This document shows, piece after piece, positions 4,511-61,702 of a stretch of 64,000 nt of DNA (positions are counted from its first letter, which is position 1; the number at the start of each line of letters is the position of its first letter). The notes under the pieces are model-generated. The model made no database searches, had not been told where the DNA came from, and saw only the letters and a program-made list of their open reading frames with translations. The position numbers were made by a program, and so were the translations under genes. Location of the stretch: the IMG/VR virus record IMGVR_UViG_3300045771_000049, positions 64,001-128,000 of that record; one strand, given 5' to 3'. Origin of the DNA: a virus (Duplodnaviria > Caudoviricetes).

Positions 4511-4516
4511 TAAATA
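4511..4516 (+). promoter_or_regulatory. T4-like late promoter TAAATA (representative of more than 25 copies)
   Basis: Same hexamer, correctly oriented, upstream of structural, effector, prkA and other genes (positions given per feature); matches the core of T4 TATAAATA. Confidence 0.8.
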
Positions 4517-4522
4517 GACGCT

Positions 4523-4888
4523 ATGCGATACCATCAATTGCGCGCGAGTGAGGCGATGACCGAGAGTTCGGGGGATGAACGCAGGTCCATCGTGGACAAC
4601 ACAGAGGACGATTACCGGCTGCCCAACCTGTCGCGGATCGTCCCGCCGGAACATCTGCATCCGGTGGTGAAACTCGCTCTACCCAATGTCACGATCTACC
4701 GCGCAGTTCCTGAGGGCATAACCGAAATCCGCCCTGGTGATTGGGTCGCTCTGGATCGGCATTATGCCGGAACGCACTCCCGTGGCGGAGCGGTGCTCTC
4801 AAAACGGGTGCCTGCTGACGATGTCGCCTGGGCTGGTACCGATAAAAACGAGTATTACTACGTGCCGCGCAAGATCGTTGCGCCATGA
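4523..4888 (+). CDS. leader-bearing ART-like protein (IYRAVP..PGDWV family)
   Basis: TAAATA 4511-4516; leader MRYHQLRASE; VTIYRAVP..IRPGDWVA...YA..H...NEYYY as seen in polyvalent proteins. Confidence 0.6.
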   Translation: MRYHQLRASEAMTESSGDERRSIVDNTEDDYRLPNLSRIVPPEHLHPVVKLALPNVTIYRAVPEGITEIRPGDWVALDRHYAGTHSRGGAVLSKRVPADDVAWAGTDKNEYYYVPRKIVAP

Positions 4889-5044
4889 CCCGATAATCTG
4901 AGTTTGCCCATGACCTTTCACCGTCGATGGTTCATCTGGCTGCACGATTGGACCAATCCGTTACGCCGCTACCTGCGGCGATGGCGGTCACGGTACGGCG
5001 CGGGGGTCTGCGCCGCCATGAGCCACTCTGGTGCGGGTTTTGGC

Positions 5045-5243
5045 ATTGTCGTAGCCCGAAGTCGGACTGATCCTTTGGTCGCATGGTATCACAATATATT
5101 GTTTTTGTAGCCACCCTTTTCGTAGCCACTCAGAAAGTGGCTGCTGTCTTCTTGTCGTAGCCCCGTTTGAGAAGGACTGGGGTGACCACTGACTGATCGC
5201 GATTCGCGCATCATTCTCGTTTTCGTAGCCCTGAGCAGGACTG
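5045..5243 (-). repeat. array A of short hairpin repeats C-AG(T/C)C..GGCT-AC(G/A)AxAA
   Basis: Units start on the minus strand at 5243, 5179, 5143 and 5069, plus a half unit near 5107-5112. Confidence 0.7.
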
Positions 5244-5392
5244 TGGTTGAGCTAAGTCATTTTTAGTAGCGTATGGGATGGTCGCCTTCCCATCGGCTGC
5301 CGGTTTGACAAAGAGCGGAGTATCACTGTAACATTATCATCGATCGGTTTGGGATGCAAAAACAAGTTAACGCGAACCGGTCTAAATACGCC

Positions 5393-5950
5393 GTGCGTTA
5401 TCTTGAATTCATGTCTGAGACCGTGACCGAGCCGGACTTTGGCTTTTCCAATTGGTTTGGGCGTAGCGTCGTCGTTCGTGATGGTCAGCCGCTTGAGGTC
5501 TACCATGGCAGTGCGGCGTCCCATCCGATCCCCTTTAAGATGCGGTCGAAATCGATTAACAGCACGACGCTGGGCGATGTCGCGACCACCCGGCGCGGCG
5601 CCTTCTTCACCGCTAATCCGGCCTTTGCCGCGCAATATGGCACACGGGTTGGCGGTTATTTCTTGTCCCTGCAACACCCGGCCGAGATCACCCGTGATCG
5701 CATGCTGGATTTCGCTGATTCGCTCGATGCCTTCACCGAGCGCGATCTGTGGGTCCTGGCAAAATATCAGACCAAACCCTGGATATTCTTTGATGGTGAG
5801 TTGGGGGAACGGTTTGTGCACTACTTGATCGCGGCAGGCTTCGATGGCGCCACCTTTCATGAGGATGTCGAAAGCCCCGCAGGCGAGTCGATCGAAGGCA
5901 CGACTTTCGTGGCCTTTCATCCGCAGCAGATACGGCATGTTAGTAAGTGA
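5393..5950 (+). CDS. ART-PolyVal-like ADP-ribosyltransferase with leader
   Basis: TAAATA 5383-5388, GTG start MRYLEFMSE; FSNWFGRSVVV.DGQPLEVYHGS, GAFFT, GFDG, FVAFHPQQI. Confidence 0.75.
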   Translation: MRYLEFMSETVTEPDFGFSNWFGRSVVVRDGQPLEVYHGSAASHPIPFKMRSKSINSTTLGDVATTRRGAFFTANPAFAAQYGTRVGGYFLSLQHPAEITRDRMLDFADSLDAFTERDLWVLAKYQTKPWIFFDGELGERFVHYLIAAGFDGATFHEDVESPAGESIEGTTFVAFHPQQIRHVSK

Positions 5951-6407
5951 TCTCACCGAGACGCGAGCGGCGTCGCTCTATCACGGTTGCGGTCTCGGCG
6001 GCGCCTTGCAGATCATCGCGCGGAATACCCTGGAAGACCGCACCCAGCACGAATTAGCCCCCGGCAGCGAGCCGGTCACCGGAACCTCGTTGAGCCGGTC
6101 GCTCCGCGTGGCCTGGGGCTTTGGTGATGTGGTGTTTGAGTTCGATCAGACCCGGCTGCGGCAGCGGTTTCGGCTCATCCCGGTGGATTACTGGCATCGT
6201 GCCTTGGAACCGGACTTGACCGGCGTGGGTCGGCGGCGCGGCAAATATGCCGAAGCGGAAGAATTTCTCATCGGGCCGTTGACCAACGTGATGCGCTATG
6301 TCACGGCCATCCACATGACGCCCCAGCGACTGGCATGGGCGATGAAGTATCATCAGGAGCAATCCCAGCCGCTGCTGACACATCCGTTGCTCAAAGTCAT
6401 AGAGTGA
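5937..6407 (+). CDS. ART-like protein (LYHG..SL(S/T)RS..ExEE family)
   Basis: Leader MLVSDLTE; LYHG, GTSLSRS, VVFEFD, EAEEF; paralogous to 22950 and 60866. Confidence 0.6.
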   Translation: MLVSDLTETRAASLYHGCGLGGALQIIARNTLEDRTQHELAPGSEPVTGTSLSRSLRVAWGFGDVVFEFDQTRLRQRFRLIPVDYWHRALEPDLTGVGRRRGKYAEAEEFLIGPLTNVMRYVTAIHMTPQRLAWAMKYHQEQSQPLLTHPLLKVIE

Positions 6408-6438
6408 ACTACCCCCGCCCTAAAGAGGCGGGGGCTTC
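6404..6438 (+). mobile_element. solo IS200/IS605-type end hairpin
   Basis: GTGAACTACCCCCGCCCTAAAGAGGCGGGGGCTTC resembles IS605/IscB-element terminal hairpins; no tnpA/tnpB in window. Confidence 0.55.
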
Positions 6439-6478
6439 CAAGACCAAATCGTCTGGCGCGTTCTTGATAAATAAGTTC

Positions 6479-7675
6479 ATGCGCTATCGTGAAATCTGCC
6501 GCATTCGGCCGCTGCTCGAAACGTACCGGTTTCTGACTCGTGATGAGCGGGGCAATGACATCTCACCCGATGAACTGATGGACGACGTGGACGAGCCGAA
6601 GATCATCGTGCGGTGGGGGCGTGATCGATATCAGGATGAGTTGATCGCTGTATTCCCGCTCGATGATGGGTATGATGAGCAAAAGCGCTTCCATGTTATT
6701 CTTGACGATCAGAGTGCCACGATCGAACGGGAGAGTTTTCAGTTTGAGGCCGCGCCAATTGTCAAATATCTCTTGAGTCGGTGGCCGCAATACGCGAGCT
6801 TCACATTGCACTCCATGCCCTCTTATTACAGTGAAACGGCCCTCGGGGACGTCGAAACATTGGCTGATCTGGCCAAACATACCAAACGACCTTCGGTCAC
6901 TGATCAGCGAATTTGGTACCATGGCACCTCGTCGGTACATGCGCCGGAAATTCTTCGGCTTGGACTTCGCCCGCAGGATGCCGATAATCGGCAATATCGC
7001 GGCATGCATGGCAGCAAAGAGAACATGGTCTATCTGACGTCCGATATCGACACCGCCGAATTCCATGCGAAGAATTCGGTCAAGCATTTTGGCGGGGCGC
7101 CCACGGTGTTGCGGATCGACATTTCCGGTTTGGAGGCCAATATCCGCACCGATCATGACGTGCGTTTCACGCCTTTGGCGGCGGAGCGTAACGCGCAGAA
7201 TCAGGGTGATCTCAAACGTATCCGGGCGAAACCGGGACAGGCCAGCTACATGGGTCTCAAAACCATTTCGTTTGCCGGACGTATTCCGCCGAGCCGCATT
7301 TCCATTCTGTCCCAGGGCGCGGACACCAAAGCGGCCCCGCGTTTGCAGAAGATTGCGGGCCAGTATGAGTTTCTCAAAGCCCTCGGGGCACTCACCTCGG
7401 GTATTGCCGCCGCCTACATGGATCAGTTTTTTCATATCATCGGCGCCCAGCCGTCCGGTTGGACTGGCACGACCAAACGCTATCCGGACAGCTACCGTGA
7501 GAATGTGCCCTTGCTCATCAATTCGATTCACAATGGACGGCAGGCACCGGCCAGCTACGCGCAATGGATTCGGGGGATGTATCGGCGGACCGGGGCTTGG
7601 CGCACACGCGGCGGCGTTTACACGCAGATCGTCACCTTGATCGCCGATGAGATCAAGCGCCTCAGCACGGTCTGA
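6479..7675 (+). CDS. leader-bearing protein with Tpt1/KptA-like ART domain
   Basis: TAAATA 6468-6473; MRYREICRIRPLLE; WYHGTSS..ILRLGLRP, VYLTSD..A..HA, GGAPTVLRID. Confidence 0.7.
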   Translation: MRYREICRIRPLLETYRFLTRDERGNDISPDELMDDVDEPKIIVRWGRDRYQDELIAVFPLDDGYDEQKRFHVILDDQSATIERESFQFEAAPIVKYLLSRWPQYASFTLHSMPSYYSETALGDVETLADLAKHTKRPSVTDQRIWYHGTSSVHAPEILRLGLRPQDADNRQYRGMHGSKENMVYLTSDIDTAEFHAKNSVKHFGGAPTVLRIDISGLEANIRTDHDVRFTPLAAERNAQNQGDLKRIRAKPGQASYMGLKTISFAGRIPPSRISILSQGADTKAAPRLQKIAGQYEFLKALGALTSGIAAAYMDQFFHIIGAQPSGWTGTTKRYPDSYRENVPLLINSIHNGRQAPASYAQWIRGMYRRTGAWRTRGGVYTQIVTLIADEIKRLSTV

Positions 7676-7685
7676 TGCGGGTTAT

Positions 7686-7836: not shown

Positions 7837-8874
7837 TTATTCATCTTCTGACAATTTCGCACTGCCTGCTTTATCAGGATCAAAATTCGCATGGGCGGAG
7901 CGTACCTGATTTGCCTGAAAGGCGATCGTAACCGCATGCGATTTTCCGCGATTGCCCGGATTATAGCGGTCGATGTGCCGCAACCCGTCGTATCCGAGTT
8001 CTTCGAGCCAGCGATTCGCTTCAGTTTTGAACTCGATGGTGTCGGTCTCACCACCAAATAGCTGACTTTCCGACTGCCAGTCATGGTAGCCGTCCGTATT
8101 CTGCCAGAGTGTTTTATAAATCTCGCGCCCATAGGCAGAGGCGATCCGTCCGGAGGCCAACATCGTTGCATGGCGCTCAGCTTCTTCGGCCTCCCGTTGT
8201 TCAATCCTGTCAAGACGTTGCTTAATCTCCTTTAGGTCGTATTCAACTGCTTTCTCAACGTCCGTGATGTATTCTTCATCGTTTTCGCCGTCGTCGTAAT
8301 CATCCGGATCGATGTCCGCATGTGAGTCAGCGCCCTCAAGCGTATACAACTGATCTTCGAGTTCCTCAGTCTCGGTCCGTTCCCGATGCTCGTCCTCTAC
8401 GTCGGCCTCATCCGACCAGTTATAGGCTTCCTTTTGGAGATCGTGCCAGAACTCGATATGCTCAGCCCCATCCGGAAAACAATGGTCGAAAATGCGTTTG
8501 ATTTCGGCGAAGGGATAGACCTTATCAAGATCGAAAGGATTCTTAACTTTTAGGAAAACCTTGTATACGGTGGGGGCTGGCTCGTCGTCGGTATCGTTAC
8601 CCCACGACGTGCCGGGCTTCGAATAGCCGCTGGCAGCATCGGTATCTCTGGTCGCATAGGCACCCCGTCCGTAGGCGAGGTTCTCGTCTGGCGTCCGGTC
8701 GAGATCGACTTCGTCGAAATCGCCATTGGGCGTCCCGAAATAATGCGGATCATCCGGATCGAACCCCATCTCGCGCGCACGTGTCATGCGCGCTTCATGT
8801 GAATTATCTCCAGGTGCGGGTGGTCTGTCAGTTAGACCCTCAATCAATGCGATATAGCGCCGGATAATATTCAC
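7837..8874 (-). CDS. ART-PolyVal-like protein with acidic insertion and leader
   Basis: Leader MNIIRRYIALIE; RAREMGFD, YFGT, YGRGAYAT, VYKVFLKVKNPF, GYDG, FQANQVRSAHANFDP; promoter 8901-8906. Confidence 0.7.
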   Translation of the reverse strand: MNIIRRYIALIEGLTDRPPAPGDNSHEARMTRAREMGFDPDDPHYFGTPNGDFDEVDLDRTPDENLAYGRGAYATRDTDAASGYSKPGTSWGNDTDDEPAPTVYKVFLKVKNPFDLDKVYPFAEIKRIFDHCFPDGAEHIEFWHDLQKEAYNWSDEADVEDEHRERTETEELEDQLYTLEGADSHADIDPDDYDDGENDEEYITDVEKAVEYDLKEIKQRLDRIEQREAEEAERHATMLASGRIASAYGREIYKTLWQNTDGYHDWQSESQLFGGETDTIEFKTEANRWLEELGYDGLRHIDRYNPGNRGKSHAVTIAFQANQVRSAHANFDPDKAGSAKLSEDE

Positions 8875-8981: not shown

Positions 8982-9521
8982 ATGCGCTATCGTGAACTGA
9001 TGATCGAGACGACTATCCCCGGTGTGCCACCCAGCGGCAAATTCATTGCCTATCACGGCACCGGGGCGAAGATCACCCAGTTCTTTCAGCCCTCGCTGGC
9101 CGGGCATTTCTTTACCCAAGACAAGGACTACGCCAAAGGCTACGCGGGTGGCAAAACACCGCTGTCGAAAATCGACAAGCCTAAGAAAACCCGCAACTAT
9201 CTGCTCACGGTCGAGCTAGAGATCAACCACATGTTTGACACGAAACATGATCCTCAGGCCTTGGCGTATTACAACACGCGGTTTGTTCCGCAGATCAATG
9301 AAATTCGCGCCAAATATCATCAACCGCTGGTGCCGATCCTCGATCCTGGGCGGTTTGTCTCATTTGTCAATGCTGACGATTTGTACCGCCACTTCATGCG
9401 TTTCAAGCCCGACTATGACGGGATGCTGGTCGATGAGGGCAGCTTTACGTCTCCGGCCATCGTCCCATTCAACGTCGCGCAGATCAAGATCGTGAAGACC
9501 GAGATCGTCAAGTTTGACTAG
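8982..9521 (+). CDS. ART-PolyVal-like protein with leader
   Basis: TAAATA 8971-8976; MRYRELMIE; AYHGT, GHFFTQDKDYAKGYA, YDG, FNVAQIK. Confidence 0.7.
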   Translation: MRYRELMIETTIPGVPPSGKFIAYHGTGAKITQFFQPSLAGHFFTQDKDYAKGYAGGKTPLSKIDKPKKTRNYLLTVELEINHMFDTKHDPQALAYYNTRFVPQINEIRAKYHQPLVPILDPGRFVSFVNADDLYRHFMRFKPDYDGMLVDEGSFTSPAIVPFNVAQIKIVKTEIVKFD

Positions 9522-9730
9522 GTTATTTCAATCGGCCGATGATCGTGATATCGGAGGCGACTTTGAACACGACGCTCACCGGCTCTCCCTCGGGGTTCAT
9601 GTCATATAAGCGCACGCTCCGAAAGCCCATGCCAAAACATTCGTTCATCACCGCGTTTTGGAACGATCCGCTCATCCGACACGGTCTTCGCACAATCGCA
9701 TCCAGCGCCGGAGATCGGTCTGCATCTGAG

Positions 9731-10489
9731 TCATAGCGCGAAATGCTGACGCAATAGTCGGCTGATCATGGCATCAAGCGCGTCTAATGTGGCACCCTCG
9801 GCATGATCGACGTAGCGTTCATAGGACTTGCTTTTGGTCGCCATGAGATGTCGATTGCCTAAAATCGTGTTCAGCATCGCCGCTCGCATCGTCTCAGGCA
9901 CTTTTCGCAGCACACGAATGAGATCATATGCCACGGTGTGGGCGTAGGCTTCAAGTTCATGCGGTGCCGACAAATACCGATCATCAGTTGCACTACTGAA
10001 GTCGCCGCGTCTGCAGGAACCCGGCGCGTTAAGCTGATCCCGCGTAAATTGCTTTTTAAGCAACTGAACCACATGAACAAACTCATGCCCAACAGCACCA
10101 GCAAACAACTGACATACTTCATCGAAAACCTCATCGCTTTCCGAAGCCGCTGCCAAAACCGGGTACGGTAGATAGATGTTAACCTTTTTGCTCACGATGC
10201 CGGTTTCAGCCCGGACCTCCGAGCCAGCGCGATCGATCTGAATTTTGACCGGAGGGGAACTGAAACTGAAATGGCGTTGCAGCCAACCACCGTATTGCTT
10301 GACCAAATCCGCCATGATGTTCTGCAAATCATTTTGCAACTTGTTGCCGAGTTGCCGGGCACTGCCAAAATCGCCATTGAAATCGGCAAAAACCGCATTG
10401 AAACTTGCCTCTGCGCGATCAAACACGAAGGTGTCAATCGCGCGTTCGTCGGCTTCGACCAGCTTAATCCAATGTGTCAGGGCTTTCAC
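9731..10489 (-). CDS. leader-bearing zincin-like metallopeptidase
   Basis: Leader MKALTHWIKLVE; HEFVH (HExxH) and YLSAPHELEAYA; promoter 10496-10501. Confidence 0.7.
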   Translation of the reverse strand: MKALTHWIKLVEADERAIDTFVFDRAEASFNAVFADFNGDFGSARQLGNKLQNDLQNIMADLVKQYGGWLQRHFSFSSPPVKIQIDRAGSEVRAETGIVSKKVNIYLPYPVLAAASESDEVFDEVCQLFAGAVGHEFVHVVQLLKKQFTRDQLNAPGSCRRGDFSSATDDRYLSAPHELEAYAHTVAYDLIRVLRKVPETMRAAMLNTILGNRHLMATKSKSYERYVDHAEGATLDALDAMISRLLRQHFAL

Positions 10490-11622: not shown

Positions 11623-12375
11623 TTAGGCAATGTCGGTCTCATCGATCATGTTACTGGCCGGATAGAACGTCCCGGCATTACCGATCGCGGATTTGATCTG
11701 GGTTGACGCAAAGACCGCGTAGATATCAGCGGCCTTGCCACTGCCCTCCTGACGATCTTTCACATTCCGCACGATCAAGCCATCATAGCCCTTCTGTTTG
11801 GCCAAAGCCATAAGATCGTTGGTTGTCCAAACATCATCTTCATAATAAATGTCGCGCCAACTGTCGCCCTTCGCATTCACCCGCAGCGGTTTGATCATCC
11901 GCAGATAGGCCATGATCACGTTGCCACCCTCGGCAAAGCTCTTGACATCCTGAATGGCGTGTTGCCTGAAAAACGCACAGGCCGCGTCGAAGTCGTTATC
12001 CGTCATCAGGAGCTTGTGATATTGTTTTTGCTCGACCTCGGTGGCAAAGCCCCAATCCTCGGTCTGTTGTCCGGCATAGCTTTGCGCCATGTCGGTGGAA
12101 TTGGTGAAAATGAACGTGCCCGTAGGCACGCCGGTCTGGGTGTTCGAATTCGACATCGCTGGATCGAAGAAGCGAAAATCCGATTTGGTGCCATGATAGA
12201 CCACCAGCGGTTGGCCACTGCGATTGACCACCCGGCTCCGGCCAAACCACTGCCAAAACGCTTGGGTTGCGGTGGGGGTCTGGGCGATCGGACGTCCCAA
12301 ACTGTTGGTTGGCGGAGTCGTCGGTGCTGTCCGCTTGGCTTCGACCAGTTGCGACCAGTGGCGTAAGGTGTTCAT
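11623..12375 (-). CDS. ART-PolyVal-like ADP-ribosyltransferase with leader
   Basis: Leader MNTLRHWSQLVE; FWQWFGRSRVVNRSGQPLVVYHGT, FIFT..AQSYA, GYDGLIVRNV.D, QIKSAIGNAGTF. Confidence 0.8.
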   Translation of the reverse strand: MNTLRHWSQLVEAKRTAPTTPPTNSLGRPIAQTPTATQAFWQWFGRSRVVNRSGQPLVVYHGTKSDFRFFDPAMSNSNTQTGVPTGTFIFTNSTDMAQSYAGQQTEDWGFATEVEQKQYHKLLMTDNDFDAACAFFRQHAIQDVKSFAEGGNVIMAYLRMIKPLRVNAKGDSWRDIYYEDDVWTTNDLMALAKQKGYDGLIVRNVKDRQEGSGKAADIYAVFASTQIKSAIGNAGTFYPASNMIDETDIA

Positions 12376-12388: not shown

Positions 12389-12538
12389 TTAAGGCGTCGC
12401 GCACGTCCCATTCGCCTTGTAGCCGGTCTGCGGACGCTTCGTAGCGGCCCGCAGACCGGCTAAGTCACACTGGCTGCCGAGTTTCGCCGGATAGCGATAT
12501 CCGTCCACCTGCTTTATCCACTGTCGAATATCGTGCAT
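12389..12538 (-). pseudogene. leader-only remnant ORF containing a long hairpin
   Basis: Promoter 12544-12549; MHDIRQWIKQVDG then about 36 non-informative residues that include the 12420-12462 inverted repeat. Confidence 0.5.
12419..12462. repeat. GTAG-footed, REP-like inverted repeat
   Basis: (G)TAGCCGGTCTGCGG ... CCGCAGACCGGCTA with 14-bp perfect arms. Confidence 0.65.
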
Positions 12539-14975: not shown

Positions 14976-15181
14976 GCTGCGTCCTTAGCAAGGATTCGAC
15001 AGGGGTCAGATCAAGTTGGGGATCGTTTGGCTCGGCGGCTAAAATGAAGCTTGCTCATTTTCCCGCCAATCCGCAGGACCGGCCTCCACCAGTGGTATCC
15101 ACTGCCGAAGATTATATATCATCACCTATTTACAAACCGCACAGAAACATGTTATCTCTGAGTTAGGAAGGGACCCCTGCT

Positions 15182-17046: not shown

Positions 17047-17481
17047 CTATCGAAGGCGCAGATGACGGGGATCGAAGACGATCAGGGTGCCAACTTCACC
17101 CAGCAGAGCGTCGGGAAACTCGGCATCCGGCCGGGTAATTTCGATGCCATCGTAGCCCGCTGCTTGCAGTTCAGCGCGAAACGCCGCGACAGTCTCCGGA
17201 CTGCTTCGGCGCGGAAACCGGTCATAATATTGATTGATGGGTAATTTGAAATAACGCCCGTGCCGCAGCATCAGCGCCATGACGTGCTTGTCTTTGCTGA
17301 ACGCCGGGTAATTGGCAGCATGCTGCGCATCGCGGCTGACAAAATGACCGAGCAGCGCCGTGGGATGACTGCTGCTGTCGCCGCGATGCGCATCGTCAAA
17401 TGTCGTGAAATGGCGATCGGTGCCATGATAGACTGGATGTTCGCCTTCTACCAAACGCATCCATTGACGCAGATTAGACAA
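17047..17481 (-). CDS. minimal ART-PolyVal-like protein with leader
   Basis: Leader MSNLRQWMRLVE directly before VYHGT; LGHFVS..AANY; AGYDGI; IVFDP; promoter 17510-17515. Confidence 0.75.
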   Translation of the reverse strand: MSNLRQWMRLVEGEHPVYHGTDRHFTTFDDAHRGDSSSHPTALLGHFVSRDAQHAANYPAFSKDKHVMALMLRHGRYFKLPINQYYDRFPRRSSPETVAAFRAELQAAGYDGIEITRPDAEFPDALLGEVGTLIVFDPRHLRLR

Positions 17482-22949: not shown

Positions 22950-23498
22950 ATGCGCTACCATGAAATCATCACCAATTCTGTCACCGAAGCATTGGATCAT
23001 TCCCAGCGATTATTGTTTCACGGCACCACGTTCCTTCGCGCATCTGAGGTGATTGCTGATGACCAGCTAGATGCTCGAACCACCGACAATGCACGCGGCT
23101 TAGGTCATGGAACTAAGGGGGTCAGTTTAACGCGCTCGTACCAGTTTGCTACAAATTTCCGCTTGGCTCGTCGATCGGTGGTGTTTGTGCTCGATGGCCG
23201 TCATCTCGTTACGCAACCAGTGGCCTATTGGTCAGCCGAGGAGCGGCGCAAGAATGGTCGAGCAGATGAAATGGAGGAATACCATATCGGCCCAATCGCC
23301 CCTCTGTCGCGTTATTTGATCAGTATCAACAGCGTTGCATCATTCGATATGTGGTACAAGCAAGTTACTGATACCCCTGACAACCCGTATGAACCGGCAG
23401 AGAAAACCAATCTGGTGCGTCAGGCGATCGAACGAGGGTTTCCGATGGCCAAGAAGCTTTGGAACCGCTGGAAGCCGGTTCAAGGCGTCGCATCATGA
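22950..23498 (+). CDS. ART-like protein (LFHGT..GVSLTRS..EMEE) with leader
   Basis: TAAATA 22937-22942; MRYHEIITNSVTE; motifs as named. Confidence 0.65.
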   Translation: MRYHEIITNSVTEALDHSQRLLFHGTTFLRASEVIADDQLDARTTDNARGLGHGTKGVSLTRSYQFATNFRLARRSVVFVLDGRHLVTQPVAYWSAEERRKNGRADEMEEYHIGPIAPLSRYLISINSVASFDMWYKQVTDTPDNPYEPAEKTNLVRQAIERGFPMAKKLWNRWKPVQGVAS

Positions 23499-37034: not shown

Positions 37035-37973
37035 TCATGGCGCCGGTTGCAGTTCTTCTCGGGTATAGTTGTACATCTCGCCGCCTTTCTTCCATTTGAC
37101 GGAAAACCAGCCGCCCGGCTCGGTCGGTGCCCGAGTAATAATGCCGATCATGCCGGGCGGTGGGATAAAATGAACGGGGTAGCGTCCAATCGTAGGATGC
37201 GGCTCTTCGTCACCGCGATAGACTCCACGCCAGCCGGTTCCAGCCAATCGCCCAGCGGTCATGAAGTCGGCTGGTTTGAGATCATCGACATAAAGCGAAT
37301 TCGATCCCCGGAAGCGTTGCTTCAGCACCTGGGTATGGGTCACCTTGGCACCGACTTGCAGTCCGGTCGCTCGCTTCGGGTCCACCACGCGGATCAGACT
37401 GGTGTCGTAGATGCAGACCTGATCGCCATCGAGCAGCTTACGGATGCCTTTGCCGAGAAACCACACGGCATCGGCGCGCGCACTCAGGGTCTTGGTGAGG
37501 TTGTTGGTGGCTTCGAGCCAAGCTTTGTAATTGCGGGCGCGGGTGTCGTCACTGGTCATATTGTAGCCATTGGCGCGCCACCACTTCATCATCGTATTGG
37601 GCGCCCCGAAGTTGATCTCTTCGACGTTGGTCGAGGCCAGATAGAACGCCCGTCGTCCCTTCGTCGTATTGCCTGCGTAAGCCTTGGCGATCGCTTTGAC
37701 GGTGGTGAAATAGGCGCCGAACCCCAGGTGATGAACCGGCGCGGCGATGCCGGTCTGACCATAGGGTTCGAAACTGTAACCATTGCTGGTACTATTGGTG
37801 TCGGATGGGATGGACCGGTCTGTGTCGAAGCCCGTGGCGATGATAGCGGACAGATCGGTTTGGGTGCCATGATACATCGGACCAAACATTTTTTGATCAA
37901 CTGCTTCCTGTGGCGAAATCACTTCCACGGCGGCCTCAAACAGCGGGTTTGGGAAAAGTTCACGAGTGTGCAT
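37035..37973 (-). CDS. ART-PolyVal-like protein with leader
   Basis: Promoter 37978-37983; MHTRELFPNPLFE; MYHGT, LGFGAYFTT..IAKAYA, DQVCIYD. Confidence 0.7.
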   Translation of the reverse strand: MHTRELFPNPLFEAAVEVISPQEAVDQKMFGPMYHGTQTDLSAIIATGFDTDRSIPSDTNSTSNGYSFEPYGQTGIAAPVHHLGFGAYFTTVKAIAKAYAGNTTKGRRAFYLASTNVEEINFGAPNTMMKWWRANGYNMTSDDTRARNYKAWLEATNNLTKTLSARADAVWFLGKGIRKLLDGDQVCIYDTSLIRVVDPKRATGLQVGAKVTHTQVLKQRFRGSNSLYVDDLKPADFMTAGRLAGTGWRGVYRGDEEPHPTIGRYPVHFIPPPGMIGIITRAPTEPGGWFSVKWKKGGEMYNYTREELQPAP

Positions 37974-40142: not shown

Positions 40143-40634
40143 ATGCGCGACCTGATCAATATCGTCGAGAACGCCGAACGATCATTGCCCCTGGCCATCG
40201 GCTGGGATTTCGACAACACCTTGATCGATGCGCCGACTTCGCCCGTGCTGCACGCGTTCATTGTCGAGCATCCCGAGATACGCCATTGCATCGTCACCTT
40301 TCGCACGCATGGCATGCGCGCTGCCATCTGGGAGGATTTGGAACGTTATCCCACAGCCCCCGCACCCGGCATGTTCGAGGCTGTGTTCAGCATCTCAGAT
40401 GAGGCATGGATGGCAAACGAGGTCGCCCTGCACCAGCGCCGCCGTGGCAAGTTGACCGGCCCCTGGACACCGGCTGAAATGTATTATCGTTCCTGGAAAG
40501 CTTTGACCTGCCTGAAGCACGGATTGTCTGTGTTGGTAGATGATGATCTCGCGACGTGCCAGGAAGGGTGTGATAAACACGCGATCAAATTGGTGCATCC
40601 CGACGCCTTTGTACATCCACACCCATTTGGCTAA
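40143..40634 (+). CDS. HAD-like phosphatase with leader
   Basis: Leader MRDLINIVE; motif I WDFDNT; IVTFR; WK..VLVDD. Confidence 0.7.
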   Translation: MRDLINIVENAERSLPLAIGWDFDNTLIDAPTSPVLHAFIVEHPEIRHCIVTFRTHGMRAAIWEDLERYPTAPAPGMFEAVFSISDEAWMANEVALHQRRRGKLTGPWTPAEMYYRSWKALTCLKHGLSVLVDDDLATCQEGCDKHAIKLVHPDAFVHPHPFG

Positions 40635-52214: not shown

Positions 52215-52223
52215 GTTACAGTC

Positions 52224-53504
52224 CTATACGTTGACGCTTTGTTTTTGAAACAGCGAGCGAAAGACTTCAATGACATTGTCCGGTGAAGACAACCGTCGGG
52301 CCGCGACCTTCGGCGTGAGGGCGGCAATTTCAGCGAACATCTTCCAGACTTCCGAGTCACGCTGCACCAACCCGTTCGGATAACCGCTGCTATCGCGACC
52401 GACCTCGACATAGGTCACATATTGGAACCACGGCAGCATGGCGGACAATTTCTCCCGCGCTTCGGTATTGTCGCTGGACGAATTATCGCCATCCGAGCAC
52501 TGCGCCATATACAGGTTCCAACTATTCACATCATAGCGTGAGATGATAATCTTGCGGGCTTCTTCGTATGCTACGGACACGACGGTGCCACCGGTATCGG
52601 TCGCGTGAAAGAATGTATCTTGGTCAACCTCGGCCGCAACATGGGTGTGCCGGATGAAGACGATATCCACATGCTTGTATTGACGGGTGAGGAACAACCA
52701 GAGCAACAGATAGAACCGTTTGGACAATTCCTTCATAAACTCGGTCACCGACCCTGACACATCCATGATCGCGATCATCACTGCCTGGGTGATCGGCGTC
52801 GGCCGCTTCTCAAAGTTCACATAGCGCAGATCGGATTTCTCTAAAAAGCTGATCGCGTCAGCGCTGTGTTGCAAGGCGGCGATTTCTATATTGATTTCGC
52901 GCTTGCGGTCTTCGTCGTCGGTTTCTTGCAATTCGCCGATGAGTTCTTCGATCAGCGCGAGTTTGGGGAATTTCAACGCGATGCGCCGACCGAGGCCCTG
53001 GATCATGGTGCGTTCCAGCGCGAGGTTGCTGGTCGAGCCAACCGTGGTGAAGCCAGCCCGGTGGCGAGTGAACGAGATGGTCTGCTTATTGGAGCGCTTG
53101 ATCATGTCTGGCAGGCAGAGGTCTTCGAGGATGGCATCGACGTATTCCTGGTAGCTGATGCTGAACCGGAAGTCGTCATTCCCCTCGCCGTCCCGCGCGC
53201 CGTCTGAGCCACTGCCGCCGCCAGCGGGTGGCCGGGGGATGTTATCCCCGACCACGTAGTCTTGGTTACCCGGCAGCACGTAGTCCCACATACCTTTGCC
53301 TTTGGCGTAGTGGAATTGGGGTTCCTCGATCCCGTCTTTGGAGACGGTCACCTCGGTATCGGACTTGTCCTGGATGTTGCGGCCATTGAGTTGTTTCCGC
53401 GCCGCTGTGCGGATCGATCCTCTCACGCGCTCGACGAAGCGTTGCCGGTTTGTCAGACTTTTCCCACTGGGGTTCAGGCGTCGATCAATAATGCCGAATG
53501 TCAT
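52224..53504 (-). CDS. yeaH: YeaH/YhbH (DUF444) vWA-like protein
   Basis: IIDRR..KS..NRQRF, LPGN.DY..GD, MDVSGS, FIRH, GGTVVS, SDGDN. Confidence 0.93.
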   Translation of the reverse strand: MTFGIIDRRLNPSGKSLTNRQRFVERVRGSIRTAARKQLNGRNIQDKSDTEVTVSKDGIEEPQFHYAKGKGMWDYVLPGNQDYVVGDNIPRPPAGGGSGSDGARDGEGNDDFRFSISYQEYVDAILEDLCLPDMIKRSNKQTISFTRHRAGFTTVGSTSNLALERTMIQGLGRRIALKFPKLALIEELIGELQETDDEDRKREINIEIAALQHSADAISFLEKSDLRYVNFEKRPTPITQAVMIAIMDVSGSVTEFMKELSKRFYLLLWLFLTRQYKHVDIVFIRHTHVAAEVDQDTFFHATDTGGTVVSVAYEEARKIIISRYDVNSWNLYMAQCSDGDNSSSDNTEAREKLSAMLPWFQYVTYVEVGRDSSGYPNGLVQRDSEVWKMFAEIAALTPKVAARRLSSPDNVIEVFRSLFQKQSVNV

Positions 53505-53522
53505 GACAGGTGTCCTTAAAAA

Positions 53523-56500
53523 TTACCCAGACTTCTGCACTCGCATATAATACTCAACGACACGCCGAACTTGTCGGGGCGTGTAACCTTTCTGGCTCAT
53601 GCGATCAACAAAGTCATTGTGTTTATCTTGATCGTCTTTGTTCGACTTAGTACCGAAACTGACGATCGGCAGCAGTTCAGCCACGTTCGAGAACATCTTC
53701 TTCTCGATCACCTTGCGCAGTTTTTCGTAGGACGTCCACTTGATGATTTTGCCGTTGGCCCGCTGGCGCAACACAAACTTGACGCATTCCTGCCGAAAAT
53801 CCTTCGGATTGGCGATGCCAGCCGGTTTTTCGGTCTTCTCCAACTCGCCGTTCAGATATTCGCGGTTGAACATTGTGCCAGTGTCGGCGTCCTTATAATC
53901 GATATCGTCCATCCAGTGGTCTGCATAGACTATATACCGATCGAACAAGGTTTGCCCGAATTCGTCATAGGCTTCCAGGTAGGCCATCTGGATTTCGTTG
54001 CCGATGAACTCGACGTAGCGCGGCGCCAATTCCGATTTGATATAGTCGAGATACATTTTCTCGGCGTCGTTGGGGAACTGTTCGCGGATCAACGCCCGTT
54101 CCAACATGAACAAGAGATGCACCGGATCGGCCGACACTTCGTCGGTGTCGTGGTTGAACGTCGCGGATAAGACCTTGAACGCGAACCGGGTTGACGTGCC
54201 GGTCATCCCCTCATCAACGCCCGCCGCTTCGCGGTATTCCATCACCGGCTTGGCGCGCGGATCGGTCTCCTTGATGTTTTGCCCGTCATAGACACACAGT
54301 TTCGCCCACTGGGTGGAATTCTCATGCTTCGCCAGCCGCGTAAGGACCGAGAATTCGGCCAGCATCTGCAAGGTCGCCGGGGCACACGGGGCATTCTTCA
54401 AGTCAGACGACTGAAGCATCTTCTCATAGATCAGGCGCTCATCGGTGGCGCGCAGGCAATACGGCACCTTGATCACACAAATCCGATCGATGAAGGCTTC
54501 ATTATTAGAGTTTGCCTTAAAGTTCTGCCATTCGCTCTGATTCGAATGCGCCACGACGATACCGTTGAACGGGATGGCGGAAATGGCTTCAGTTCCCATA
54601 TAATTGCCTTCCTGCGTCGCCGTCAGCAACGGATGTAGCATTTTTATCGGAGCTTTAAACATTTCAACGAACTCAAGCATGCCTTGGTTGCCCCGGCACA
54701 GACCACCTGAAAACGAATAGGAATCAGGATCATCCTGTGAGAACTTTTCCAGCTTGCGGATGTCAGTCTTGCCGACCAGGGACGAAATATCCTGATTGTT
54801 CTCGTCGCCCGGCTCGGTCTTGACGATGCCGATCTGTTCGAGCTTCGACGGCATCACCCGCGCCACCCGGAACTTGGTGATATCGCCACCCGCCTGCTTG
54901 AACCGTTTGATCGCCCATGGACTGAGAATCATATTCAAGTAACGCTTGTCGATGCCATAATCGGCCATCAGTGCATGATACCTGGGCGCATTGAACAGAC
55001 CGAGCGGCGTTTCCAGCACGGGCGACATTCCATCACCTGCACACAATACGTAGATCGGAAACTTGGTCATCAACTCGCCGACGCGGATCGCCAGACTCGA
55101 ATTATGACTAACAATGCCGTTCGCGACGTAATTATGCGTTCCGGCAACTTCAATATCATACATCGGCTCATCACAGTCGAGGTCAACGATATCGTCTATC
55201 TTGTCCCAGTAAATATCACCTTCGGCAAGTTCTCGCAACGATTCAGCGTTTTTGAAGAACTCAATGGCATATCGGACAAAGCCCCTGCGGGACCCGATGT
55301 TATTGTCGAGTTGAGTGCGCAAGTTTTCCTTGAGTCTGGACGTACCGTCTTTTTTTGATGCTAGTAGAGTGTTTGTGGCCTCGATCACTAAGTTCTTCGG
55401 CAAAATATCCCAACCACCCGAGTGCTTTCGTTGATCGATGACACTGACAAACACTTCGTCACATGCCTTTTCTTTTCCATAAATACCAATTCTGGAAAGA
55501 AACGTCATGATATGATACCGATCATATATTGCAACAGTATAGGCTCTCCGTTTCTTCACCCCGTTCAAAATCGGCACGTAGGAGGAGATGCGTGCAGCGA
55601 TACCAAATTTGCTTAGCAGCGAGCAGACTTGTCGAGCCATGATCTCAGACACACTGGTATAGCCGATTTCGTTATTAGTTCCGCAAGAAGCCCATCCATC
55701 AGTGGCGTATAATCTAGATAAAAATAACGCGACTTGATCTTCTTCCAATTGGAACACGTAGTCAGGAATGAATTTTGTGTGACTTAGCGTACCGTTTAGG
55801 TTCAATTCCTCAAAACGATGGCGGATCGCCATTTCACCTTCGCGTTCATTGATCCGGTAATAGTCGATCAGACCTGTTGCTGCTTCGATCTGCGGTTTGA
55901 CGACACAGCCCAGTTCCGCAACTGCGCCTTGAAAATCAGCTACCACCGCTTCGTTGAAATTGGTGAACGTTATATTTCCAGATGCCGGTATATGCCCGTC
56001 ACCCAGGATATAAGCTAGTACTTTTAGAAACGCTTCGTCGTCGCGTTTGGTACCGAACGGCAATGTCATTGCCGTAGCAATCAAATCCCCCGGTCGCAAA
56101 GCGTCAATTTGTTTCCAGCCATGGTTGGTGAATAAACGATGCGTTGGGGCTCCGCACACCTCCAAACCACGCGATGTAGTGACTTTCCAAACAGGCTTTT
56201 CATCTAGGATGAAAGTGTTGTTGACCTGCTCCGCACAGGTCCGATGTGTAGTTGCATCAGTCGAAACCACACAGTCACCGACCTGAACAGTTTCGATGGT
56301 TCTCCATGACCCATCAGCCATGGCGATCAAGGTCCCGGCACGGTGACATTTCGCGGTGCCGACCGGCCCCAGTAGATAGAGGATTTGCTTGCGTTCCTCC
56401 AAGCCCTGCGCGGCGTGCTTGAAGTATCCCACGATCCGCTCAATCGTGTCCTCCATGCCGTAGAAGTCCTCGAAGGCTGGATAGACTCGCACGGTGCGAT

Positions 56501-56711
56501 TGGCGAAGATGCGCGACAGCCGAGGATCGGCCGAGGTATCAAGCTTGACGGGATCACCAATGGCCGCAACCATGCGTTCGGCGGGTGTGGCATAGGCCAT
56601 CGAATCGGTGCGACAGAGGTCCAAATAGTCCTGGATACTCATGTACGTGGTTTCGGTAATTTGAAAGTCGTTTTTGAGAAGGGCTACGATGTCCATTTGC
56701 TGTCCTGACAA
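53523..56711 (-). CDS. prkA: PrkA/YeaG AAA+ kinase with intein
   Basis: FYGME, GLEERKQILYLLGPVG, KTEPGDENNQDISSLVG, EFVEMFKAPIKMLHPLLTATQEG; promoter 56721-56726. Confidence 0.95.
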   Translation of the reverse strand: MSGQQMDIVALLKNDFQITETTYMSIQDYLDLCRTDSMAYATPAERMVAAIGDPVKLDTSADPRLSRIFANRTVRVYPAFEDFYGMEDTIERIVGYFKHAAQGLEERKQILYLLGPVGTAKCHRAGTLIAMADGSWRTIETVQVGDCVVSTDATTHRTCAEQVNNTFILDEKPVWKVTTSRGLEVCGAPTHRLFTNHGWKQIDALRPGDLIATAMTLPFGTKRDDEAFLKVLAYILGDGHIPASGNITFTNFNEAVVADFQGAVAELGCVVKPQIEAATGLIDYYRINEREGEMAIRHRFEELNLNGTLSHTKFIPDYVFQLEEDQVALFLSRLYATDGWASCGTNNEIGYTSVSEIMARQVCSLLSKFGIAARISSYVPILNGVKKRRAYTVAIYDRYHIMTFLSRIGIYGKEKACDEVFVSVIDQRKHSGGWDILPKNLVIEATNTLLASKKDGTSRLKENLRTQLDNNIGSRRGFVRYAIEFFKNAESLRELAEGDIYWDKIDDIVDLDCDEPMYDIEVAGTHNYVANGIVSHNSSLAIRVGELMTKFPIYVLCAGDGMSPVLETPLGLFNAPRYHALMADYGIDKRYLNMILSPWAIKRFKQAGGDITKFRVARVMPSKLEQIGIVKTEPGDENNQDISSLVGKTDIRKLEKFSQDDPDSYSFSGGLCRGNQGMLEFVEMFKAPIKMLHPLLTATQEGNYMGTEAISAIPFNGIVVAHSNQSEWQNFKANSNNEAFIDRICVIKVPYCLRATDERLIYEKMLQSSDLKNAPCAPATLQMLAEFSVLTRLAKHENSTQWAKLCVYDGQNIKETDPRAKPVMEYREAAGVDEGMTGTSTRFAFKVLSATFNHDTDEVSADPVHLLFMLERALIREQFPNDAEKMYLDYIKSELAPRYVEFIGNEIQMAYLEAYDEFGQTLFDRYIVYADHWMDDIDYKDADTGTMFNREYLNGELEKTEKPAGIANPKDFRQECVKFVLRQRANGKIIKWTSYEKLRKVIEKKMFSNVAELLPIVSFGTKSNKDDQDKHNDFVDRMSQKGYTPRQVRRVVEYYMRVQKSG
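55101..56348 (-). mobile_element. LAGLIDADG intein in the PrkA P-loop (416 aa)
   Basis: GPVGTAK|CHRAGT..LAYILGDG..LYATDG..YDIEV..NGIVSHN|SSLA. Confidence 0.93.
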
Positions 56712-59210: not shown

Positions 59211-60545
59211 TCAATCCTGCTTACGGCTGTGGTAGAGCCACAACATCTTGTACAACTGGTCTGCGTTCAAATCGGCGATCAGATCGCGCAGTTTCTGCGA
59301 CGGCTCATTCGGATGGTGGATACGGGCGAGTGCCAGCATCGCGGCTTGGGCCTTCGGTCGAGAATAGGTAGCTTTGAGCTTGGCGATACCGGCCGCCTCC
59401 GTGCCGGGGACGCCCGCAACGGCACGGTCACCATGGACCGTCTCATCCCAGGGCTGCAAATAATTCGGATCACCCTTGGTATCCACCACCTGCACCTGAG
59501 TGATAAAACTCTTTGCGTTGGTGATTTTGTTCGTTTTACTGGTAACGACCCATTCCCATTCGTAGTTGTCGCCCAGTGTGCCGTATTCATCGTCATCATC
59601 ATGTGGTGTGACGGTGTGGGATGCGGCCAGTTTGTGCCCATCTAACGTGAGGACCACGCCCCATCGGCCGCCCTGGGATGACATTCTGGCAAACCGAATC
59701 GCGACACTTTCATCTTCGGTGGTACTAAACCCGAGATTGCCTTGATCGTAGCTGTCGATGTCGAAGGTGTTGCTGGCGCGCATGTCCAGATACTGTTGGA
59801 GACCCGTGCCGTGATACAGCGTCTCGGGCACGCCGTTATGGCCGTGTCGCAAGGTCTCGCCCAGAATGTCAGTATGTGAGTTCACTCTGCCGTCGAGCAG
59901 CTTATCGCTAGACGTTTTTGATGGATCGAAGCTGGCGTGTCGGGTGCGGATATTGTTTGGATGAAACACCACGTAGCTGTCGCCTTTGCCTTCGACACGA
60001 TTGCCATAAACCAAACCGTCATAGCCTTGTCGCTCGGCGCTGGCTTGGATCGCGCGCCAAAAATCTGCGGCACTGGCTGTGAACTTGGCTTGTTGTTCGC
60101 TCTTAGACTTGTTCAGAGCGCCCCATTCACCACCCGCTGCGCGTCGCAATCGATCTGTTTGTTTCGCCAAGTCGAAAATACGATCATGATCCTCGTTATT
60201 CGGATCAAAACCTTTAGTGTTCAAACACCAAATCTTGGCGCGGTTCATATAGGTCGTTCGCAACGTAGAAAACATATCATAGACACGCAGGGGGTTATGC
60301 AGACGCAGTTTGACGGGAATAATATTTGCGCCCGGCTGATACTCCGCATTGTCAGGCGAACGAAATATTGGTCTTATGACTTTATCAGCCTGTTGAAGAG
60401 TCCCGAAATGCATCCCGATATCGCCAGTTCGGCGCGGATCGAACGCGTCAAAAGCAGCGGTCGTGCCGTGGTAGGCATCGATGTTGAAGCCTCGATCATC
60501 GGCGTCTTCCACCAGCCGTATCCATCGTCTCAGGGCATTTTCCAT
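59211..60545 (-). CDS. tandem two-ART-domain protein with leader
   Basis: Promoter 60550-60555; MENALRRWIRLVE; domain 1 AYHGT..GMHFG..GYDGLVY.N..EG; domain 2 LYHGT..GFSTT..A.RFA..YEWE. Confidence 0.75.
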   Translation of the reverse strand: MENALRRWIRLVEDADDRGFNIDAYHGTTAAFDAFDPRRTGDIGMHFGTLQQADKVIRPIFRSPDNAEYQPGANIIPVKLRLHNPLRVYDMFSTLRTTYMNRAKIWCLNTKGFDPNNEDHDRIFDLAKQTDRLRRAAGGEWGALNKSKSEQQAKFTASAADFWRAIQASAERQGYDGLVYGNRVEGKGDSYVVFHPNNIRTRHASFDPSKTSSDKLLDGRVNSHTDILGETLRHGHNGVPETLYHGTGLQQYLDMRASNTFDIDSYDQGNLGFSTTEDESVAIRFARMSSQGGRWGVVLTLDGHKLAASHTVTPHDDDDEYGTLGDNYEWEWVVTSKTNKITNAKSFITQVQVVDTKGDPNYLQPWDETVHGDRAVAGVPGTEAAGIAKLKATYSRPKAQAAMLALARIHHPNEPSQKLRDLIADLNADQLYKMLWLYHSRKQD

Positions 60546-60771
60546 GTGATATTTATGGCATACGCCTGACTAGGTGCTAACCCATTAACATTCACCCGTC
60601 AATCCTGCGACTGACGGGTGATGCCGGATGGACGCCCACAGAACCGTCTCCTACACGCCCACATCGCCAATCACTGTAGGCAGTTGGTTATTGGTCGTGT
60701 AATCGTAGTCTGACTACGATGGGCGGGCTTTGTCCAAACCTTTTCGCTCACTATTGCGATAGATAGCGATT

Positions 60772-60876
60772 ATGCGCTACGCTGAACTTCTCATGGAAAC
60801 CACGGTCCGGCTCACCGATCTGTACGATGAGCGAGACAAGTATATTGATCTCGCGGAGTATTCCGATGACGCATAG
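60772..60876 (+). pseudogene. leader-only micro-ORF
   Basis: MRYAELLMETTVRLTDLY.. (34 aa); promoter variant TAGATA at 60760-60765. Confidence 0.5.
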
Positions 60877-61399
60877 TCTTCGGCGTTGGATGAGGTTGAT
60901 CGAAGGCGATGCCACGGGATTGCTGTTTCATTCTACGACCGTCGATGCCGCGCTCAGGATCATCGCCAGTGGCACGATCAGGGGCACGCCGACCCATGTG
61001 GGCCATGAGTCGGGGGTCAGTCTGACGCGCAGCTTCAATTTCGCGCAATACTGGCGCGACGGCATCATGTTTGTGTTGGATACTGACAAGCTGAAATCCG
61101 AAAATCATCTGGTGCCGATCCAGTGGCGTCCGCATCACGGTGAGGCTAATCCAGGCGACGAGCAGGAGACCTTCGCCTATGGTTCGATCGCACTGGCCGA
61201 CACGTTGGTCAGCATCAATATCGGTAACCCATTTAAGATCGAGCCGTCGAAATGGGAGACACCCGAACGAGTGGCGCAATGGAAAACCAAGCTGGCCCCG
61301 CTGCTGACACATCCGAAACTAAACGCGTGGCAGCCAGTGGTTTCAGTTCCGAAGCCGAGGCGCAGGCGGACACTGCCATCAAAAGGAGCTTCGTTATGA
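60866..61399 (+). CDS. ART-like protein (LFHST..GVSLTRS..EQE) with leader
   Basis: GGAG RBS; MTHSLRRWMRLIE; paralog of 5937 and 22950. Confidence 0.65.
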   Translation: MTHSLRRWMRLIEGDATGLLFHSTTVDAALRIIASGTIRGTPTHVGHESGVSLTRSFNFAQYWRDGIMFVLDTDKLKSENHLVPIQWRPHHGEANPGDEQETFAYGSIALADTLVSINIGNPFKIEPSKWETPERVAQWKTKLAPLLTHPKLNAWQPVVSVPKPRRRRTLPSKGASL

Positions 61400-61617
61400 T
61401 TCAGCAATTCGATTATCTGCCCGGTCCGTGCCTACGATCCAGCCATTGCTGCAAGACGACTGCCTGCCGATTTGGCGAGTGGGACGCCGCCAAACATCAA
61501 TGTCGATTCCTCGAAGTGAGCGAATCGAGGCGCTGCCTTAATCGTACGGTGCCGCACTCAATCCCGCTTTTGGTCGCGGCTGTTGTCACCAGAACTCGCT
61601 GTTTCAGCGGATGCTGA
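61396..61617 (+). pseudogene. Cys-cluster protein, apparently frameshifted
   Basis: CLRSSHCC..C..CRFL; NPAFGRGCC lies in another frame. Confidence 0.4.
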
Positions 61618-61651
61618 AATGACTACTTCGGGTGAACTAAATATCGCTCTC

Positions 61652-61702
61652 ATGCGCTATCATCTAATGATGTTCGAGATCAGCACCGATCTGCTCGATT
61701 AG
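61652..61702 (+). pseudogene. leader-only micro-ORF
   Basis: TAAATA 61638-61643; MRYHLMMFEISTDLLD-stop. Confidence 0.5.

Follow-up and report, generated by a model that had tools for sequence, protein, structure and literature searches.

The 64,000-nt window analysed here (bases 64001-128000 of the 152,147-bp soil-phage contig IMGVR_UViG_3300045771_000049, 54.7% G+C) contains a dispersed set of open reading frames (ORFs) whose bodies are largely dissimilar and which begin with one of two classes of short N-terminal leader. These leaders are probably capsid targeting and processing sequences of the type known from phage T4, employed by a clade of huge phages of the T4 superfamily. A portable capsid label had been proposed in an original prediction made from the window sequence, and all tests that were run favoured it: the contig encodes a T4 gp21-type S77 protease, its capsid protein contains an L-M-E/A site (a slash marks a known or predicted cut), class 1 leader residues match T4 Y4/F7/I8/E10 in their spacing, the leader classes are swapped among orthologous bodies, and a leader gene lies in the head module of relatives. 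The contig is only part of the phage genome; its pieces cited below are L001, L002, L003 and L005, and ORFs are named by their start or their coordinates in the window.

Across the contig, 38 ORF starts carry a leader of 8-14 residues, and 19 of these starts are in the window (Table 1). The class 1 leader is M-R-Y-x-E-Φ-Φ-x-E (Φ, hydrophobic), with some members extended to 13-14 residues, and the class 2 leader is (M-x-N-x)-L-R-x-W-Φ-x-L-(V/I)-E. Φ-x-E first occurs at residue 8-14 in 36 of the 38 leaders, and the residue following the leader Glu is Ala (15), Thr (8) or Gly (6) in 29 of those 36. When all six frames of the 152 kb were scanned, the strict class 1 pattern was matched 15 times, 14 of them at ORF starts, compared with 0-2 matches in shuffled sequence; the class 2 pattern was matched 14 times, always at an ORF start, compared with none after shuffling. 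All 17 starts listed in the original prediction exist, although 5393, 8874 and 10489 begin with GTG and 17481 with TTG, 60772 and 61652 are leader-only orphans (34 and 16 aa), and 12538 is a 49-aa ORF whose leader ends in Asp instead of Glu. That list had also missed the orphans 9725(-) and 15122(-) as well as a class 2 ORF that runs into the window from a start 206 nt ahead of it, ending at 316. Orphan leaders, in which leader and promoter are followed by a stop after 16-49 codons, account for six starts on the contig, five of them in the window (9725(-), 12538(-), 15122(-), 60772 and 61652; the sixth is at genome position 21933). In three cases a leader-only short ORF lies directly upstream of a gene with its own leader (60772/60866 and 12538/12375 in the window; L002:1933/2054), with class 1 ahead of class 2 in two of the three; such leader-only ORFs could be scars of leader or cargo replacement.

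The T4 genes ipII and ipIII, as read from the T4 record, start with MKTYQEFIAE/A. For T4 IPIII, packaging needs no more than the first 10 residues; within these, targeting depends on positions 4 and 7 and processing on positions 8 and 10, and Asp at position 10 stops processing and leaves targeting intact (a review of Black's work, PMC9026906). Class 1 residues Tyr3, Φ6, Φ7 and Glu9 correspond to T4 Y4, F7, I8 and E10 at identical spacing, with one N-terminal residue fewer. In class 2, Trp is followed by Φ at +3 and +4 and by Glu at +5, one residue shorter than the T4 arrangement. T4 gp67 likewise begins with an L-I-E/A site. The two systems thus share an N-terminal signal of about 10 residues with the order aromatic-x-x-Φ-Φ-x-E, cut after Glu (predicted here), on otherwise unrelated and fast-evolving cargo, in phages that combine a gp21-family protease with a gp23-type capsid, and for each of them a general use of the label to load proteins into the head has been suggested. 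They differ in that the contig, whose label is known from sequence alone, has two interchangeable leader classes, one built around Trp, and at least 38 labelled genes in 152 kb, compared with 3-4 per genome in T4. In addition, the ATG on the contig lies at the predicted start of a late promoter (leaderless), whereas T4 ip genes have a Shine-Dalgarno sequence, and the contig cargo consists of predicted enzymes, whereas that of T4 consists of small basic proteins.

The machinery that such a label would require is encoded on the contig outside the window. A gp23-type major capsid protein (L005:15314-16528; PF07068, 8.8e-92) is accompanied by a gp21-type prohead protease (L005:13408-14037; Peptidase_S77, 7.5e-31) that shares 33% identity with T4 gp21, including conserved catalytic His and Ser motifs (GELDHP/GELxHP and GVSSRG), and a long coiled-coil scaffold gene lies between the two. 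The capsid protein contains ELRLME/AAT at residue 53, comparable to the known maturation site FLTE/AEI at residue 65 of T4 gp23. The contig protein shares 76% identity with the capsid protein of Sinorhizobium phage Phosso (469 kb) and 63% with its counterparts in Agrobacterium phage Atu_ph07 and Pseudomonas phage PA5oct. Because of these capsid, protease and scaffold genes and the closeness to Phosso, Atu_ph07 and PA5oct, the contig is assigned from its sequence to an uncultured huge phage of the T4 superfamily.

The bodies were clustered after removal of the first 15 residues. Eleven of them, all ADP-ribosyltransferases (ARTs) of the ART-PolyVal family, grouped together; a further three formed a second cluster and two a pair, leaving about 18 singletons. 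The 11-member cluster includes both leader classes. The ART encoded at 8982-9521 has 14 metagenomic orthologues (54-70% identity over the domain) that begin with either class 1 leaders (MRYHEIMTE, MRYAEIM, MRYSEL) or class 2 leaders (IRRWIRLVEG, LREWMMLCE, IRKWMRLIE), the join between leader and body falling just before strand 1. Leader classes are also swapped among homologues of a second family (5937, 22950 and 60866), and the leader of the HAD-like 40143 ORF is kept in an 82% homologue and lacking in 43-46% homologues. The body of the 4523 ORF resembles the C-terminal region of genome ORF 22054. AlphaFold2 models of both families place the initial 16-17 residues outside the domain, at a pLDDT below 50; in the 8982 model residues 1-17 have this low pLDDT, residues 3-8 are helical and the domain begins at residue 20, and in the 22950 model the leader is unstructured (pLDDT <50). 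A reading of the leader as helix 1 of the ART fold was rejected, as the models place it outside the domain and it is also found on non-ART bodies. These comparisons show the leader to be a modular element that is exchanged between classes. Plain paralogy, in which all leader genes descend from one ancestor and retained its N-terminus, would suit the eleven bodies that form one ART-PolyVal cluster, but more than 15 bodies are mutually dissimilar, including SprT-like and HAD-like ones, only 3 of 84 leader matches in IMG/VR (described below) have ART-like cargo, and orthologous bodies carry different leader classes; these findings already contradict it, leaving this explanation scarcely credible.

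The leaders were also found in other phages. Pattern scans gave three class 1 matches in Phosso and one in Atu_ph07. In Phosso such genes are few but informatively placed: an 80-aa ORF beginning MRYNEF follows the portal gene, and ORFs with MRASELFEF and DLRKFMNILNE lie between the protease and scaffold genes. A search of IMG/VR for TAAATA followed after 4-6 nt by codons for MRYxEΦΦxE resulted in 84 matches in 78 stretches, compared with about 0.3 expected by chance, on contigs of up to 561 kb and with a G+C content of 31-57%. One recurrent match, homologous to the Phosso 80-aa ORF, is a gene of 66 aa in Phosso-like head modules, where the portal gene lies on one side of it and the S77 protease gene on the other. 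The corresponding class 2 cassette (MRxW(I/M)xLVE) was matched 10 times, compared with about 0.07 expected, on contigs of 415-500 kb and smaller, some of them in tandem: on a 499,572-bp contig (L124:6243-8300), four consecutive genes with different bodies, each behind TAAATA, start with MRTLIDLVE, MRNWINLVE, MRNWINLVE and MRNWINLITE. A 547-kb NCBI contig has five to six leader genes within 20 kb. Because of these occurrences in IMG/VR, Phosso and the NCBI contig, the label is taken as a property of a huge-phage clade, with the ART expansion specific to the present lineage.

These observations bear on the suggestion that the leader is an amphipathic signal with no role in the capsid, such as a tag for a phage chaperone or adaptor, a degron, or a helix for membrane or nucleoid localisation. 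The leader is short, is helical in one of the two models (residues 3-8), and has conserved aromatic, hydrophobic and Arg residues, all of which such a signal might show, and its link to the virion is indirect. This suggestion nevertheless leaves unexplained the terminal Φ-x-E with a small residue behind it, the positional match to the mapped T4 targeting residues, and the leaders on head-module genes of relatives, and we regard it as unlikely.

Many of the leader genes have a distinctive promoter arrangement. TAAATA occurs 84 times on the contig, compared with about 41 expected, and stands 4-8 nt before 24 of the 38 leader starts without a Shine-Dalgarno sequence; at 5 further starts it is 25-51 nt upstream. 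Of these 24 starts, 10 are in the window. The same element is found 20-35 nt ahead of portal, tail-fibre-like and baseplate genes, and the protease gene has a copy about 90 nt upstream. In T4, the late TATA box is at -13 to -6 (PMC2988020), and with a 5-nt spacer this position would therefore put the A of the ATG at +1. Because TAAATA is only 4-8 nt before their starts, the leader genes are predicted to yield leaderless late mRNAs. In such a layout the first codons might be conserved as RNA or DNA, as an initially transcribed region or a signal for leaderless translation, with the peptide incidental; an ATG at the predicted transcription start leaves no space for a Shine-Dalgarno sequence. However, leader codons differ synonymously almost everywhere (CGT, CGA, CGC, CGG and AGA for Arg, TAT and TAC, GAA and GAG, and all six Leu codons), there are two unrelated peptide classes, and leaders are also found on genes without an adjacent TAAATA and with a Shine-Dalgarno sequence (12375, 60866 and in Phosso). 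Owing to the synonymous variation conservation at the RNA level was rejected, with very little probability left to it, and because of this variation leader conservation appears to act on the peptide, through selection at the protein level.

The bodies behind the leaders were examined for enzyme families. PF18760 (ART-PolyVal, Tox-ART-HYD2 clade; Pfam gathering score 31.2 bits) was matched at E ≤ 2e-5 by six window ORFs, five of which are above the Pfam cut-off: 5393 (46.4 bits), 7837-8874 (41.2), 11623-12375 (85.1), 17047-17481 (37.5) and 59211-60545 (46.2). The sixth, 8982, scores 25.9 bits, under the cut-off, and its orthologues carry PF18760. With seven more contig ORFs outside the window, there are 13 ART-PolyVal proteins in 152 kb. 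The active site of this family is H-Y-D, its three residues lying in strands 1 (His), 2 (Tyr) and 5 (Asp) (PMC5512222). Among the 11 ART paralogues YHG is nearly invariant and Y-D-G nearly invariant or invariant, and in the 8982 ART, H25, Y50/Y54 and D146 are invariant in 15 orthologues (strand assignment from the model). The best PDB match of the 8982 AlphaFold2 model (pLDDT 81.8) is a pre-ejectosome chain of cyanophage A4 (E 7e-4), followed by diphtheria toxin, tankyrases and PARPs with TM-scores of 0.3-0.44. No window ORF had a Pfam match to the Alt/VIP2 (R-S-E) type, the motifs being H-Y-D. A tblastn search of phages with the 444-aa ART (59211-60545) found only Tenacibaculum phage pT24, weakly and in the ART domain. 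This protein has a second YHGT at residue 244 that may mark a second, diverged ART domain; a RES-domain match is weak.

The assignment of the remaining bodies is less firm. ORFs 5937, 6479, 22950, 37973 and 60866 have just YHGT-type motifs or weak fold leads. The second family (5937, 22950 and 60866) has no Pfam match, and Foldseek with its model found nothing significant in the PDB (E ≥ 1.5). VIA-align placed ART-superfamily chains (KptA, DarT, NarE, PltA, CteC and LT) at 11 of its top 18 positions with weak Z of 2.2-3.5, and a protein atlas gave a DarT/PARP lead (0.91). In hhalign, the second family, 6479 and 37973 matched the 11-ART alignment with a probability below 3%, a result of little weight given the poor alignment (640 columns). 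The twelve ART-like proteins originally predicted for the window are thus an overstated count, to be replaced by six firm ART-PolyVal ORFs and about five leads; as to their folds, the 8982 model is ART-like and the second family has weak ART-superfamily matches. The HExxH peptidase of the same prediction (9731-10489) is a bare motif without a family match, for which the protein atlas returned unnamed viral clusters and weak LPD23 and SprT leads. For its HAD phosphatase (40143), WDFDNTL (DxDxT) and VDDD are present and invariant in 4 homologues, without a Pfam match at E ≤ 0.1. Other cargo on the contig includes a SprT-like metallopeptidase (1.5e-11) and a possible GNAT.

The following mechanism would account for these features. 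TAAATA, acting as a minimal late promoter 4-8 nt ahead of the ATG, would give a leaderless late mRNA; the first 8-14 residues of its product, a short amphipathic segment (aromatic-x-x-Φ-Φ), would dock the protein on the scaffolding core during prohead assembly; and the gp21-type S77 protease would cut after the terminal Φ-x-E and so free the enzyme inside the head. The enzyme would then leave with the DNA at the next infection and act ahead of any phage gene expression, its targets being, purely as conjecture, host defences or gene expression. The label would have been put on at least 38 genes in 152 kb, among them 13 for ART-PolyVal proteins and others for the second ART-like family, the SprT-like metallopeptidase and the HAD-like protein. 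Late timing, core binding, cleavage, packaging, injection and targets are the parts of this scheme that we infer.

Several observations weigh against this T4-type targeting scheme. Degenerate leaders occur (MLVSDLTE, MRDLINIVE), as does one with a terminal Asp; 9 of the 38 starts have no TAAATA within 60 nt, most of them sitting directly behind another leader ORF; and translation of leaderless mRNAs by the host is an assumption. Dozens of cargo proteins imply a low copy number for each and put the capacity of the head for them in question. Finally, neither leader class was found in a pattern scan of PA5oct, so that its published virion proteome is not transferable to the present case. A further explanation accepts docking to the prohead core and cleavage and has the cargo serve head assembly or the producing cell, for example as a cleavage-activated zymogen, instead of being injected. 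The T4 core proteins gp67 and gp68 have N-terminal Φ-x-E sites and are not effectors (PMC9026906), and among the MRY-leader genes of relatives the best conserved is a small one in the head module. Against this, the bodies, among them ARTs and a SprT-like peptidase, correspond to the domain repertoire of polyvalent injected proteins (PMC5512222) and turn over fast, as conserved structural parts do not, and an enzyme made late is of little use in a cell near lysis unless it is carried forward. Packaging without injection is therefore also improbable in our estimate, about as much so as a signal with no capsid role, and T4-type targeting of injected cargo is the reading retained here.

Known systems resemble parts of this arrangement. 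T4 Alt is likewise a late ART whose short N-terminal propeptide is removed by the prohead protease (timing and cleavage being predictions for the contig ARTs), and in T4 it is injected and modifies host proteins. Alt belongs to the R-S-E (Alt/VIP2) clade, whereas the contig ARTs are ART-PolyVal with H-Y-D (PMC5512222), and they are small single-domain proteins with about 13 paralogues per 152 kb. The polyvalent proteins (Iyer et al. 2017, PMC5512222), which are predicted effectors co-delivered with DNA, share ART-PolyVal, a zincin/SprT-like peptidase and a possible GNAT with the contig; they fuse these domains into one giant polypeptide, whereas the contig has one domain per gene, each with its own promoter and leader. 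The ejection proteins of phiKZ and SPN3US are also from giant phages that load many head proteins and cut them after Glu with a gp21-related protease. Those phages are a separate lineage with an S/A/G-x-E motif and long propeptides, for which no shared short portable leader has been described. The PeSL cassettes in hyperplastic regions of T4-type phages (Arbiol et al. 2010, PMC2839356) are short repeated regulatory elements beside accessory genes, with possible modular shuffling, but consist of early promoters and terminator stem-loops without a peptide, whereas the contig repeat is a late promoter with a coding leader.

Capsid targeting as a loading principle has been published for T4 (PMC3012670, PMC9026906), and head-packaged ARTs have been widely proposed (PMC9503650); in the literature searched on capsid targeting sequences in cyanophages, jumbo phages and ART-PolyVal proteins, no description of the present leader was found. 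New here are the second leader class and the interchange of classes, the leaderless promoter cassette, the scale of use, and the solo ART-PolyVal cargo. A more far-reaching version, which we put forward tentatively and hold to be somewhat doubtful, is that huge phages of one clade, with genomes of up to about 560 kb, use a compact mobile cassette of late promoter, ATG at the transcription start and a 9-13-codon label, with recombination swapping labels and cargo, dozens to perhaps about 100 enzymes packaged at low copy and injected, and the leaderless design setting the dose. If this is true, sequence alone would be enough to list the proteins that uncultured giant phages inject. Injected proteins are prime candidates for counter-defence and host takeover because they act before any phage gene expression, and they are currently found only by virion proteomics of cultured phages. 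A label readable from sequence and common to a whole clade of uncultured huge phages would flag candidate injected effectors in metagenomes, here about 13 ADP-ribosyltransferases of a family without a characterised target; it would also carry the T4 capsid-targeting principle far past the T-even phages and supply natural short tags with which foreign proteins could be loaded into large capsids. The promoter-at-ATG layout in turn predicts a class of leaderless late phage mRNAs.

Table 1. Leader ORFs of the window, with the residue that follows the leader, the distance of the upstream TAAATA, and ART-PolyVal (PF18760) matches.
Position	Strand	Leader	Next residue	Length (aa)	Body and remarks	TAAATA upstream	ART match
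1..316	+	class 2, MNGIRKWLRLVE	A	173 in all	C-terminal part; start 206 nt before window		
4523..4888	+	class 1, MRYHQLRASE	A	121	no assigned family	6 nt	
5393..5950	+	class 1, VRYLEFMSE (GTG start)	T	185	ART-PolyVal	4 nt	PF18760, 8.6e-12
5937..6407	+	short, MLVSDLTE	T	156	second ART-like family; overlaps end of previous gene	none of its own	
6479..7675	+	class 1 long, MRYREICRIRPLLE	T	398	internal IWYHGT at residue 147	5 nt	similarity not significant
7837..8874	-	class 2 variant, VNIIRRYIALIE	G	345	ART-PolyVal	26 nt	3.6e-10
8982..9521	+	class 1, MRYRELMIE	T	179	ART-PolyVal; protein modelled	5 nt	
9672..9725	-	class 2, MQTDLRRWMRLCE	D		orphan; stop after 17 codons		
9731..10489	-	class 2, VKALTHWIKLVE	A	252	HEFVH at 135; no family match	6 nt	
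11623..12375	-	class 2, MNTLRHWSQLVE	A	250	ART-PolyVal; behind 49-aa leader ORF		9.9e-24
12389..12538	-	class 2-like, ends in Asp, MHDIRQWIKQVD		49		5 nt	
15039..15122	-	class 2, MIYNLRQWIPLVE	A	27	orphan	4 nt	
17047..17481	-	class 2, LSNLRQWMRLVE (TTG start)	G	144	ART-PolyVal		5e-9
22950..23498	+	class 1 long, MRYHEIITNSVTE	A	182	second family (LLFHGTT..GVSLTRS..DEMEE)	7 nt	
37035..37973	-	class 1 variant, MHTRELFPNPLFE	A	312	MYHGTQ motif	4 nt	
40143..40634	+	variant, MRDLINIVE	N	163	HAD-like (WDFDNTL, VDDD)		
59211..60545	-	class 2, MENALRRWIRLVE	D	444	ART-PolyVal; second YHGT at residue 244	4 nt	1e-11
60772..60876	+	class 1, MRYAELLME	T	34	orphan; overlaps start of next gene	TAGATA + 6 nt in front	
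60866..61399	+	class 2, MTHSLRRWMRLIE	G	177	second family		
61652..61702	+	class 1, MRYHLMMFE	I	16	orphan	8 nt	

Several further features of the contig were recorded. The portal gene is at the contig start (L001:539-3619, -) and matches the Phosso portal gene in two blocks; the insert that splits them, about 1.3 kb, is as long as an intein. Just downstream of it (L001:1-500) is a repeat array with a period of about 66 bp that resembles a CRISPR array; a gp67-like gene after the portal gene was not found on the contig, the array occupying that place. Two paralogues of about 600 aa with DUF7487 and REase_MTES_1575 matches (L005:11402-13219, -, and L005:16862-18565, +), which are homing-endonuclease-like, flank the protease-scaffold-capsid operon. 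In a blastn search, 7.5 kb of the window had no match in the phage collection. The window also contains a phage-borne PrkA/DUF444 (YeaH)/SpoVR operon (49803-56711, -), in which the 1062-aa PrkA has an intein with a LAGLIDADG endonuclease within its AAA domain and the 803-aa SpoVR, whose Pfam match is in two stretches, may also contain an insert. Two DNA methyltransferase genes and a DHH phosphoesterase gene lie amid tail and baseplate genes (24959-26080, -; 35285-35983, +; 38101-38955, -). A divergent IS200/IS605-like pair of TnpA (132 aa) and TnpB (about 416 aa) at L003:2415-4106 starts, like leader genes, 3-5 nt behind TAAATA in each case, and both lack a leader. TAAATA is likewise found in front of the gene for a 3937-aa protein with an ice-binding-like domain (L003:4667-16480, -; PF11999, 3.7e-49), the 3' end of which adjoins a leader-tagged ART gene (MRLMELIG).

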